DNA of 64,000 bases. Origin: Lama glama. Its lineage: Eukaryota. A program made the position numbers and the translations under genes. The first letter of the stretch is position 1, and each line of letters opens with the position of its first letter. This document shows positions 21,451-63,657 of the stretch, piece by piece. The notes beneath the pieces are model-generated. The model worked only from the letters and a program-made list of their open reading frames with translations. It ran no database searches and had not been told where the DNA came from. The stretch is taken from assembly GCA_028534125.1 (NCBI GenBank), contig CM052818.1:7750001-7814000 (forward strand), read 5' to 3'.

Positions 21451-21956
21451 ACTGTGGTTGCCAGCTCTCTATTAGACACTAGAGATAAAGAGATGAAAAA
21501 GTTAGGGCCATGTCCTGAAGAGCTGATGGTCTGTGATTAATGACTTTATCATAAGAGAGAAGCCATGAACAGTTCTTAGCATCCATGGCGCCCAACCAGA
21601 TACATTAAATTCTTCCCAGTCCCTCAAAAGGGGCTAACAAAGCCAGATCATCCCAGCCGTGATGAAGGCTACTGCTAGAAAGAAAGGGGGGAGACGGGTG
21701 GGGAGATCAAAGGAGAATCCAAACAGATCCAGAGATTTCAGCAACCACAAATGCTACTTATAGATCAAAAGCTTTGCACCACCCTAAGGATTTGCCCATA
21801 GGACACCAGACCTTTTTATGTTCTAATAAAGGGACTAAAGATAGCAAGCTCCCCAACTAGCTCAAACCCACATTTGTTATTTTACAAGGTAACATTTATA
21901 ATAACCTAGAACACGACTTTGGCAGCTCATGACAAGGGCTAAATGTTAAGGCTCAC

Positions 21957-22142
21957 TTCGATTTGCTGCACAGTCAGATCCAGAAAGGTGTTCTCGTTCC
22001 TCACGCCAATCAGACTCTTGGGGCCCTTGCAGCCCATGCTGGTTCCCAGACCGCCATTGAGTTTCACCACCACCAGCTTGTTCAGCACAGAAGAGATATT
22101 ATCAGGTAAGCCCCTGGCCTTTACCTTTTCATAGGGTTGAAT
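21957..22142 (-). CDS. UGP2: UGP2 exon 4 (nucleotide-binding loop)
   Basis: 186 nt encoding [64 protein letters not shown] acceptor, gtgagc donor. Confidence 0.98.
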
Positions 22143-22574
22143 CTGAAATTAAAAAAAAAAAATTACAGAATAAATCAAACAGCTTTATGAGAGGTTAAAC
22201 CAAATCAATACCAGGGTTGTTTCCATGCTTCCCTACGAGTTTTACTTTCTCTGTGGAAAGTTTCAACTACGTTTCCTTTAATGTCACGGGCCCTTCTGGT
22301 TCACAATCAAGTTTTTATGAGCAACTTCTGTTGCACACAGAAGTAGTCCAGTGGTTCACTCTACATAATGTCCTACAAGAGAAGGAAAACTTAGTTTACA
22401 AATATTTGTCTGGCTGGTGACAACATCCAAGTGTCTTGAACTACTTTTGAAAATTCAGAATTCCTCATTTGCAGCAACATAGCAAATAGGATACACAAAA
22501 CTCATCAAATCTGGAAATACTTCCAGTGCACTATGGATCTGCTTCAATTCTGGAGACGAATATATATACAGTAT

Positions 22575-22770
22575 GACCACACAGTTCTTCATAGCACATT
22601 CATGCTATTTCTGGAGATGGTGTCAAATACTCAAAACAAGCTAACAGTACCTGCCCTATTATGGTTCACAAAGGTCTGATTATTGCAATCCACAAGATTT
22701 TTTTTCCCCAACAAAAGCAAGTTTGCCTGAAAGAAAATGAGCTGTGTAAACAGTAAAAGGAATCAGAAAC
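22575..22770. repeat. Local duplication, copy A (partner at ~28595-28790)
   Basis: Manual alignment gives 14 mismatches in 110 nt (22591-22700 vs 28611-28720), and similarity continues with small indels. Confidence 0.9.
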
Positions 22771-23503
22771 GAGCACAGAGCCTTACTCTTCAACTTCTCC
22801 CTCACAGGAAAGGAACAATGACACAGTTGAAGACCAGACTCTTTCGTTTAAAGAAGAGGCACAATCAAGTTTAAACATTTAATAACAAGAATGAAAGCTT
22901 TTGAAAAGATCACAGTGTATTTTCTATCCATGTATACAATTTTTGTTGCTAATCTTTCTTTAATGGAATACGCCACCAAATGTACTGTTAAGTTACTTTA
23001 TGGTGGAGGACAGACAACACTTGAGGGGATTAAAAAAAAATAAAACCTGGTAGCAAGTGCTCAGCAAACACTTTGCTGTATCTGTGTCCTACTGCCTGTA
23101 GGGGTGTGTGTGGGTGTGTGTGACGGACGAACTCTGTGACTCGGAAAGGAGTTAATGGGCTCCCAATCCAGTGATTAGGCCCTGGAGGCAGAAATCCCAT
23201 TTCACTTGGTCAAATATACATACATGTCATGTGGATTCCTGACCACATGATTCCTGCGGTTAACAGCTCCTTCCACAAAAGTTAGCCTGTGATTCCCATT
23301 TTGTCCACCCTGCGAGACACTTTATTAACTGCTAAGTGCAGATGAATACACTTGCTCACTTGGTGTGAATACTGAGGAACCTGGAACGCTCTTCTCTAAG
23401 ACTCTCCACTGGTTATCACTCAGCTGTGACTCATTCTGAATTAGTCTCTAATGTGGCAGGACTGCCAATCTTCCTGGTTACTTGCTGCTAAGAAGTCTTC
23501 AAT

Positions 23504-23563
23504 CAGCCCATGCTGGTTCCCAGACCGCCATTGAGTTTCACCACCACCAGCTTGTTCAGCACA
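23504..23563 (-). repeat. Exact 60-bp intronic copy of UGP2 exon 4 segment 22030-22089
   Basis: Direct comparison gives 60/60 identity. Confidence 0.95.
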
Positions 23564-24759
23564 TATTCAAAAGAAGGGCTGGTGACAGAAAAGACTGGAG
23601 TTGGGGACAAGCCTCCTACCTCAGAACACTAACCACCAAGGAAAAGGAGGGCAGGGAGACAGAAAAGAACACAGACCACACGGTTGCTTCCCTGGCAGTG
23701 CTTGGTCTGGGTGAGGACACGTCTGGGTGATAACTCAGATGCCCAGCACACACACACAAAGTGCCCGACATTCCCTGAAGGATGTTTTTACTCCACTGCC
23801 GTGAATATCATTTGTTCAAGCATTTCAAAGAAACTGGTAATATCGCTTGGGAGAAAAAAATCAACTTAAGTGTCATATTACCAGAAAAGTAAGAGTAGAT
23901 GACAGAGCCACAACCTCTGTCATCCTGACGGCACATAGTAGCTTATAATCCTCTTTAGCCCAGCTGTTGAAATCAACCAGTCAGTAAAAGGAATGTCACT
24001 GTGGTACAATGGCTTCTAGTATCTATTATTAGTAGGAGAATTTATTGGGCACATTATATTTACTCAAAAGAGTTATTAGGAAATGAGGCCAAGCCAATTG
24101 TTTTCCAGTTACCTTTTAAAAGCCAAGAATTTTCCATTTAGCAGTTACTTTTGACTTCTCAGAAGAGTGTGGTATTTACAGAAGTCCCACAAAGGTGTGA
24201 AAATCCATTCAGCCGAAAACCTCTAGTTCATGTATTCATTTTAGGTAAAACTGTTAGTTTAGAAATATTTTTACCAATTTAATGCTATTTTGAATATACT
24301 TTTTAAAAACAGAATACATAAGCAATTTTTTTCTACATATGGTAAGACAGCCCTATGTTTTCCAATTTCATCTAAAAAACTTTCATTGTGAAGTCATATA
24401 CACAGAAGTTTATAAAATATACATGTACAGTTGAAAGAATAACCTAAATTTAGAAAGAATACTGCCGTAACAGATGCCTCCATGCATCTGGGAGGATCAC
24501 ATTCCTCTTCTGCCCTAATGGTACCACCATCCTGACTTTCTGCTCTCCAGTTTTACCACCTATGCATGTATCCTTAATGATAATAATTTACATAGTTTTG
24601 TCTCTAAACTTTTAACTAAATTGAATCATACTATAAAGTATCCTCTTGTGACCTGCTTCTTTAATTCAATATTATATTTTAAGAATTATTCACATTAATG
24701 CATGTAACTATAATACAGTCACTGTTCAGTGCCACAGAGTCCTTCAATTGACATACCCA

Positions 24760-25910
24760 TTAAAAGAGACAAAACTTTCATTATTTACAGATGATACAAT
24801 TTTATATGTAGAAAAATCCAAAGACCTTACAAATAAATTGTTGTATTAATGTAAGCATAGCAACAATGGAGATACATGGTCAGTATTTAAAAAAAGAAAA
24901 ACACCCAGAACTGCTTTTGGAACCCTTGTAGGCTGTTAGTAGGAATGTGAAATGGTGCACCTGTTAAGGAAAAAAAAATGGTGGTTCTTAAAAAAAATTA
25001 AAAATAGAATCACCATATGATCCAGCAATTCCACTTCTGGCTATATGCCCAAAGAATTGAAAGCAGAGTTTCAAAGAGGTGTTTGTACACTCACTTCCTA
25101 TCAGCATTATTCACAATAGCCAAAAATGGAAGCAACTCAAGCGTCCATCAACAGATGAACGGATAAAACAAAACATGGTATATATACACATGGAGTACTT
25201 TTTAGCCTTAAAAAGGAAGGAAGTTCTGACACATGCTACAATGTGGATGAAGCTTGAAAACATTGTATTAGGCCAGTCACAAAAAGACAAATACTTGTAC
25301 GAGTCTACTTATGTGAGGCAGTCAGAGTAGTCAGATTCATAGACACAGAAAAAGGGGTGGTTACCAGGGGAAGGTGGTGTGGAATGAATGGGGAGTTGTT
25401 GTTTAATGGGTATAGAGATTTAGTTTTGCAGGATCAAAGAGTTCTGGAGACTGGTTACAAAACAATGTGAATGCACTTAACACTACTCAATTCTATGTTT
25501 AAAAATGTTCAAAGATGGTAAAAAAAAAAAAAGAATCTTTAACTGTTCCCATATGTAAAGAATTGGAAATTAAAATTGATTTAAAAGGTATCTTTTGTAA
25601 TACCATCAAAAATAGCAAACAGCAAATATTGAGGAATAAATCTAACAAAAGATATACAAGTTATACACGGAACACTATAAAACATTTTTGAGAAAAATTC
25701 ATGACTTAAATAAATAAATCCAGGAATGTACTTATCATGTTTATAAATTAGAAGACTTACTAATGTAAAAATGTCAATTCTCCCCAAACTGATCAATGCA
25801 GTCCTAATCAAAACCTCAAGAGTTTTTGGTATGGAAACTGACAAGCCAAATTAATGTATGTGAGAAATGCAAAGGGTGAAGAATAGCTAAGACACTCTCA
25901 AAGAAAACCT
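24760..25910 (+). mobile_element. Nested L1: an L1MA/MB-like 3' end (~24915-25530) inside an older L1 ORF2 remnant
   Basis: ttatttacagatgatacaattttatatgtagaaaa (RT remnant); catatgatccagcaattccacttctgg; a poly(A) at ~25520, after which ORF2-like sequence resumes. Confidence 0.85.
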
Positions 25911-28594: not shown

Positions 28595-28790
28595 TGTAAC
28601 CCAGTTCTCGGTAGCATATTCCTGCTATTCCTGGAGATCGAGCCAAATACCCAAAACAAGCTAACAGTACCTGCCCTGTTACGGTTCACAAGGGTATGAT
28701 TATTGCAATCCGAAAGATTTTTTTTTTCAACAAAAGCAAGTTTGCCTGAAAGAAAAGCTGTGTGAACAGTAAAACAAGTCTGAAATGATG
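28595..28790. repeat. Local duplication, copy B (partner at ~22575-22770)
   Basis: Shares caaaacaagctaacagtacctgccct...gattattgcaatcc...caacaaaagcaagtttgcctgaaagaaaa with copy A. Confidence 0.9.
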
Positions 28791-33721: not shown

Positions 33722-33802
33722 ATGACTGGGACATTGTGCTGTGCACCAGAAATTGACACATTTTGTAACTGACTGTACTTCAATAAAAAAAACTTTTTTT
33801 AA
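33722..33802 (+). mobile_element. Young camelid-like L1 3' end with perfect TSD
   Basis: atgactgggacattgtgctgtgcaccagaaattgacaca...gactgtacttcaataaaaaaa, flanked by the 15-bp TSD agaaatagatgagct (33707-33721 / 33803-33817). Confidence 0.85.
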
Positions 33803-41904: not shown

Positions 41905-42232
41905 AAAACACATGTGACAGAGAACAGACTGGTGGTGGCCAGAGGGGAGAGGGGAGCAAAATGGGTGAAGAGGATCAAGAAGTACAAATTTCCAGTTATA
42001 AAATAAATAACTCATGGGGATGTAAAGTAAAACATGGGGATGTAAAGTAAAACATGGGGATGTAAAGTAAAGCACGGGGAATACAGTCAATAATATAGTA
42101 TTAACTCTGTGTGGTGATAGATAATAACTAGACCTGCTGTGATCATTTAGTAATATATACAAATGTCAAATCACTATGTTGTATACCTGAAACTAAATAA
42201 TATTATATGTTAATTATACTTCAATAAATAAA
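41905..42232 (+). mobile_element. L1 3' end (L1MA9/laurasiatherian type) with an internal 20-bp triplication
   Basis: gacagagaacagactggtggtggccagagggg...tgtatacctgaaactaa...aattatacttcaataaa. Confidence 0.85.
42013..42080 (+). repeat. Tandem repeat CATGGGGATGTAAAGTAAAA x~3.4
   Basis: Units start at 42013, 42033 and 42053, with a partial unit at 42073. Confidence 0.9.
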
Positions 42233-53451: not shown

Positions 53452-53575
53452 ATTAGGAGTTTGGGGTCAGCAGATACAAACTACTATATGTAAAATAAAC
53501 AACAAAGTCCTACCATATAGCACAGGGAACTATATTCAATATCCTGTAATAAACCATAATGGAAAAGAAAAAAAT
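53452..53575 (+). mobile_element. Cetartiodactyl-type L1 3' UTR fragment
   Basis: aggagtttggggtcagcagatacaaactactatat...tatagcacagggaactatattcaatatcctgtaataaacc. Confidence 0.8.
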
Positions 53576-63267: not shown

Positions 63268-63657
63268 TCTTCTTTATTTATTTTTTATTGAAGTACAGTC
63301 AGTTATAATGTGTCAATTTCTGGCATACAGCACAATATACCAGTCATGCATATATACATACATATACTTATTTTCATATTCTTTTTAATTAAAAGTTATT
63401 ACAAGATATTGAATATAGTTCCCTGTGCTATGCAGAAGAAATTTGTTTTTTAATCTATTTTTATATATAGTGGCTAACATTTGTAAATCTTAAACTCCCA
63501 AATTTATCCCTTCTCATGCACTTTCCCTATAACTATAAAATTGTTTACAAGCCTGTTTCTGTTTTGTAGATGAGTTCATAGTGTCCTTTTTTTTTTTTAA
63601 TATTTCACATATGAGCAATACCATATGGTATTTTTCTTTCTCTTTCTGGCTTACCGC
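63268..63657 (-). mobile_element. Young camelid-like L1 3' end running into the terminal N gap
   Basis: tttattgaagtacagtcagttataatgtgtcaatttctgg... is the reverse complement of the family at 33722, and it continues into L1 3'UTR. Confidence 0.85.

Follow-up and report, generated by a model that had tools for sequence, protein, structure and literature searches.

A 60-bp copy of UGP2 exon 4 in intron 3

The window, by which we mean the whole 64-kb stretch of DNA analyzed here, contains an exon of UGP2 on its minus strand (Table 1). Its translation matches the UDPGP family in Pfam (PF01704, E 4.4e-22), and 61 of its 62 residues are identical to a PDB chain of UTP--glucose-1-phosphate uridylyltransferase (4r7p). 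Judged by translations this is the fourth exon, and the intron before it spans 23,256 nt. A search of the genome with the exon 4 protein returned one match, the exon itself, indicating a single locus, and among the best-scoring candidates of a protein search we found no UGP2 exon 4 retrocopy that could have served as an alternative donor.

Intron 3 carries a second copy of 60 bp of this exon. The two sequences are identical at 60/60 bases in the same orientation, with an offset of 1474 bp, an intervening gap of 1414 bp, and zero extension of the match on either side. This pair is the longest exact direct repeat of the window. Sequence comparison and inspection bore out the original prediction on the identity, orientation and distance, on the absence of poly(A) at the copy, and on the presence of a TTCAA word at each side of it. 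The donor segment lies entirely within exon 4, and its codons translate to 19 residues of UDP-glucose pyrophosphorylase, which we take to be the nucleotide-binding (UTP-binding) loop of UDPGP. A genome search with the copy and its flanks gave two matches, namely the copy and the donor, and none elsewhere for the flanks. Sensitive self-BLAST detected no decayed similarity beyond the 60 bp, and a longer old duplication was rejected on this basis.

Table 1. Features of the UGP2 donor and acceptor sites, in window coordinates
Feature	Position	Strand	Description
UGP2 exon 4, host of the donor	21957-22142	-	186 nt, 62 codons; identified by translation, Pfam and PDB
CAATCAG, likely first priming site	22007-22013	+	7 nt, same as left break end; role inferred
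Donor segment identical to the copy	22030-22089	-	60/60 bases; entirely within exon 4
ATATT, match to right break end	22096-22100	+	5 nt, just past the donor's other end; chance ~3.8%
Possible pseudoexon around the copy	23360-23578	-	acceptor-like 23578, donor-like 23360; stop at codon 4; consensus scan
TTCAA	23498-23502	+	pre-existing target; covered in empty-site contigs without listed differences
60-bp copy (acceptor), intron 3	23504-23563	-	repeat match, genome search, contig depth in X2 and X14
Left microhomology CAG	23504-23506	+	3 nt; in empty site and at donor start
Newly inserted bases	23507-23561	-	55 nt in place of a single base in the empty site; +54 bp net
Right microhomology CA	23562-23563	+	2 nt; in empty site and at donor end
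TTCAA	23566-23570	+	pre-existing target; covered in empty-site contigs without listed differences

We looked for the copy in independent sequencing runs. A run search with positions 21500-25000 brought up 24 runs. Of these, 14 are of DNA type, spread over five coded organism labels, and contain 0.92-0.95 of the sampled words; six RNA runs also matched, and the last four contained almost none of the words. Four runs were compared at 23200-23740: the DNA runs X2 (label B) and X14 (label D), which come from different studies, and the RNA-library runs X15 and X19, likewise from different studies. Both insertion junctions were present in 2/2 DNA runs examined, of the 14 that matched. Contigs of X2 and X14 break just where a k=31 graph predicts for a 60-bp repeat: the contig between the copies measures 1473-1474 bp and ends in the first 30 repeat bases, and the right-flank contig begins in the last 30. 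Depth of the 60-bp repeat contig was about twice that of its flanks in both X14 (67.5 versus 36.9 and 39.5) and X2 (27.8 versus 9.3 and 13.7). Each of these runs differs from the window at 3/541 bases, and they differ from each other at two. Neither of the two DNA runs showed an empty-site joint, an observation that does not imply fixation as contigs drop rare alleles. At 23399 the window is unlike all four runs and at 23413 unlike both DNA runs, each position being either a private allele or a base error of the assembly.

Empty site in a relative and age of the insertion

The RNA-library contigs (2/2 runs, X15 and X19), from a relative about 3% diverged, carry an empty site. In both, 23506 is followed by one letter and then by 23562, and on the shorter side the contigs extend 180 and 107 letters. 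X15 differs from the window at 14/486 aligned bases (2.9%) and by one inserted base, and most of these differences are common to X19. Against this empty site only 55 of the 60 identical bases are new, the other five (CAG and CA) having already been in the target. All of this evidence comes from RNA-library contigs of a single relative lineage, so the one base that joins the ends could have been substituted later, and the microhomologies could differ in exact length. We considered splicing as the cause of the skip and rejected it, as neither strand has GT-AG at the ends of the skipped stretch. The one letter in between and the differences along X15 also contradict splicing.

The empty site with its microhomologies supports templated insertion, one of the two origins that the original prediction had offered. 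It also settles the status of the TTCAA words, which had been put forward as a flank of the insertion: because both are present in the relative, they belong to the old target sequence and do not represent a target-site duplication. On this evidence we are fairly confident that the repeat is real and reflects a lineage-restricted insertion into intron 3 of 55 bases from UGP2 exon 4, likely the result of break repair that copied nearby DNA, and likely neutral.

The insertion arose after the split from the ~2.9%-diverged relative, and before the split between labels B and D unless it is still segregating. We computed a probability of ~0.42 that 60 neutral bases stay unchanged along the whole branch, so the perfect identity of the two copies says little about age. 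The earlier description of the insertion as recent is thus only loosely true: the copy is younger than the 2.9% split, but it is common to labels B and D.

Repair route and competing explanations

Sequence words near the donor suggest how the copying may have started. Within 2 kb of the break, both strands considered, CAATCAG is the sole match of at least 7 nt to the left break end; it lies inside exon 4, and the CAG from which copying starts comes 19 nt after it. A match of this length so placed arose by chance in 0.28% of 200,000 random end/donor trials, in a test devised after the match had been seen. The ATATT match to the right break end is weak and may have a chance origin.

We propose that a germline DNA break in intron 3 could have left a plus-strand 3' end terminating in CAATCAG. 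This end would have invaded the duplex 1.5 kb away, on its own or the sister chromatid, and paired at the 7-nt word in exon 4. The paired end may then have slipped 19 nt to the next CAG and copied 55 nt, after which the new strand would have been released and rejoined to the other end via the 2-nt match. Such a route would be compatible with synthesis-dependent strand annealing or template switching. The arrangement of the words suggests that the end first primed and then slipped, with the sense strand as template; an identical product would result if a longer first insertion had later lost 19 nt between the two CAGs.

The template for such repair might instead have been RNA, with the patch reverse-transcribed in cis from UGP2's own transcript. 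The donor and both extra matching words fall wholly within exon 4, and only 438 of the 9,867 possible 60-mers within 5 kb (4.4%) would be wholly exonic donors. Priming from a plus-strand end moreover requires a sense-strand template, whose sequence is that of the transcript, and mRNA-templated repair is known in human cells (PMC12065846). We nevertheless judge an RNA template unlikely. The copy stays within one exon and spans no exon-exon junction, and the scar reported for the pathway in the same source is loss of a whole intron, not ectopic insertion. Exons also do not dominate among the donors tabulated for comparable genomic duplications, where 8/824 overlap exons and another 16 lie in UTRs (PMC2671141 Table 2). 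Exonic copies are likelier to catch a reader's eye, and polarity agrees half the time by chance. With no spliced junction copied, an RNA template is possible but not required. If it were true, exonic sense-primed proximal duplications would form a second genomic signature of RNA-templated repair beside intron loss, one that could be counted across mammalian genomes.

Could the copy instead be old, kept identical by gene conversion or simply young enough to be unchanged, and deleted in the relative? We consider this very improbable, even though identity dates the copy loosely and the comparison holds no third outgroup. An insertion is far more economical, since a deletion in the relative would have to leave 3 bases at one edge of the copy and 2 at the other and also insert one base, whereas microhomology-mediated insertion explains these edges directly. 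The lack of decayed similarity past 60 bp also speaks against an old copy. Homogenization by gene conversion, the other origin in the original prediction, finds no support in a relative without any copy.

Equally doubtful is a functional role in which the insertion promotes a poison pseudoexon (23578 to 23360) and so lowers UGP2 via nonsense-mediated decay. An acceptor-like site does lie 15 nt before the copy, a downstream donor-like site matches at 5/7 positions, and translation would stop at codon 4. The acceptor-like site is, however, older than the insertion, with no listed differences there in the relative, and the configuration is unremarkable in an intron with 54 acceptor-like sites, 24 of which have such a donor. 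The copy brings no splice site of its own, and an in-frame stop in the exon's frame follows it.

We assign still lower probability to an origin in which L1 retrotransposed a truncated fragment of the UGP2 transcript and TTCAA marks the target-site duplication. The source is exonic and a TTTT/GA-like word adjoins the site on the minus strand, but both TTCAA words occur in the empty site, poly(A) is absent, and one base was lost rather than duplicated. L1 priming has a defined polarity under the TPRT mechanism, and a nick at the TTTT/GA-like word would be expected to prime from antisense RNA, the wrong polarity. Provided that the empty-site contig is orthologous, the empty site rules retrotransposition out.

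That the copy is an artefact of an assembly with 1,072,352 contigs has a negligible probability. The original prediction had proposed a check at both junctions, and both recur in two DNA runs (2/2) that come from different studies and labels and whose contigs were assembled independently, which refutes this reading.

Consequences, local background and known insertion classes

As it stands, the insertion, in our preferred reading a DNA-templated repair of a break in intron 3, matters little; only UGP2 RNA as its template, or an effect of the copy on UGP2 splicing, would give it more weight. At present it serves as a clean presence/absence marker for telling apart two lineages that diverge by about 3%. 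Its junction is unusually readable, with the empty site and the likely first priming site both visible. For sequence analysis, the repeat breaks k=31 assemblies at two places and could cause reads of less than about 60 bases to be misaligned.

By our computation, a deletion with its ends in the two copies would take out 1474 bp, of which 53 nt belong to exon 4, so that the 1.47-kb deletion raised in the original prediction is right as a matter of geometry only. If such a deletion were combined with use of the acceptor-like site, a 148-nt out-of-frame exon would result. The deletion is probably rare, since the available account of single-strand annealing in Drosophila gives 50 bp as too short (bioRxiv 10.1101/2022.09.24.509346). 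Contigs built at k=31 collapse the 60-bp repeat and are blind to this deletion; we did not accept the reduced depth of X2's inner contig (9.3 versus 13.7) as evidence for it, the values in X14 being 36.9 and 39.5.

We also scanned 864 kb around and including the window for unique two-copy pairs of at least 50 bp, with the two-copy filter as the sole repeat masking. This yielded 26 pairs: 3 tandem, 5 non-tandem within 10 kb, and 18 farther apart. All five proximal non-tandem pairs are direct, and the UGP2 pair alone is perfect. Pair density per 1e9 position pairs was 0.94 at 50-5000 bp and 0.04-0.10 beyond 20 kb, roughly a ten- to twentyfold difference. Proximal pairs are thus present in the genome at several per megabase, all ages counted.

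The same intron holds an older direct duplication (22579-22772 and 28599-28788; 194 bp, 85% identity, about 6.0 kb apart), which has only two genome-search matches and probably belongs to the same class. We considered intron 3 as a hot spot, with two of the five proximal pairs in the 864 kb, and rejected this, as we estimate that such clustering would occur by chance about 10% of the time. The remaining three unique direct non-tandem pairs, on G000:C3, are candidates for older local duplications with members within 2 kb of each other: 7440706-7440777 and 7442745-7442815 (81%), 7565599-7565894 and 7566451-7566751 (69%), and 7930885-7931139 and 7931267-7931520 (76%). The scanned region of G000:C3 also contains a near-perfect tandem duplication of 278 bp (8172292-8172839; 96.8%). 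Within the window itself we noted an exact tandem array of about three units with a 20-bp period (42013-42071), and short inverted matches at 33722-33790, 53483-53569 and 63281-63471 (77-88%) that are probably copies of interspersed repeats.

A literature search found no earlier description of the UGP2 intron 3 duplication, and we compared it with several known classes of insertion. Among templated sequence insertion polymorphisms (TSIPs), class 1 is described as needing a target-site duplication and poly(A) (PMC5110952); like an L1 retrocopy, it differs from the UGP2 copy, in which both are absent. Class 2 TSIPs resemble it as patches at a break with end-joining features, but their donors are described as distant whereas the UGP2 donor lies 1.47 kb away (PMC5110952). 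Repair of double-strand breaks from an RNA template shares with the UGP2 copy a break in a transcribed gene and a template with transcript polarity; its described scar is deletion of a whole intron, whereas the UGP2 copy has no spliced junction (PMC12065846).

Templated insertions made by Pol theta (TINS) are described as 3-30 bp long with templates typically within 30 bp of the break, first tracts rarely longer than 10 bp, and distal templates in <0.1% of repair (PMC7165422). The UGP2 copy resembles them in having microhomology at both junctions, in belonging to the direct-repeat class, and in showing signs of more than one priming round. At 55 nt copied from 1.5 kb away, however, it is outside their size and distance range, and the label "Pol theta type" given in the original prediction fits poorly.

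The closest counterparts are found among short local duplications. Doublets (Thomas et al., cited in PMC2671141) are likewise identical pairs of <100 bp that lie close together and are not in tandem, although the UGP2 donor is coding and the direction of copying is given by the empty site. Repair-mediated duplications (RDs) were defined by Pace et al. 2009 as insertions of at least 50 bp with one donor (PMC2671141). In that study, 824 of 1,136 duplicons lie within 5 kb of their donor, with an apparent peak near 1.2 kb, and breakpoints show microhomology of 2-9 nt, deletions of 1-15 nt, or filler. Microhomology together with deletion was seen in 9/39 inspected proximal RDs, and poly(A) in 0/39. 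RDs number about 200 each in cow and dog, seven human-specific pairs are identical, and the totals run to hundreds per mammalian genome (PMC2671141 Table 3).

The UGP2 copy agrees with the RD class (PMC2671141) in every mechanistic feature we could evaluate. It adds 55 new bases, within the size range of at least 50 bp; its one donor, by two genome matches, is on the same chromosome at a gap of 1414 bp (>50 bp and <5 kb); and its breakpoints carry 3 and 2 nt of microhomology with one base replaced. Poly(A/T) is absent, the orthologous site is empty in 2/2 runs from the relative, and partial and whole exons are among known RD donors. Repair-mediated duplication therefore fits on length (>50 bp), donor distance (<5 kb), microhomology with deletion, and lack of poly(A). 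The copy is short for an RD (55 nt; the class median is 147 bp), and unlike the RDs described it has a longer 7-nt match 19 nt outside the copied part. RDs were found through interrupted transposons, a discovery route rather than a trait of mechanism, and the UGP2 copy was found otherwise. Together these comparisons suggest that the UGP2 copy is likely an ordinary repair-mediated duplication with a well-resolved junction.
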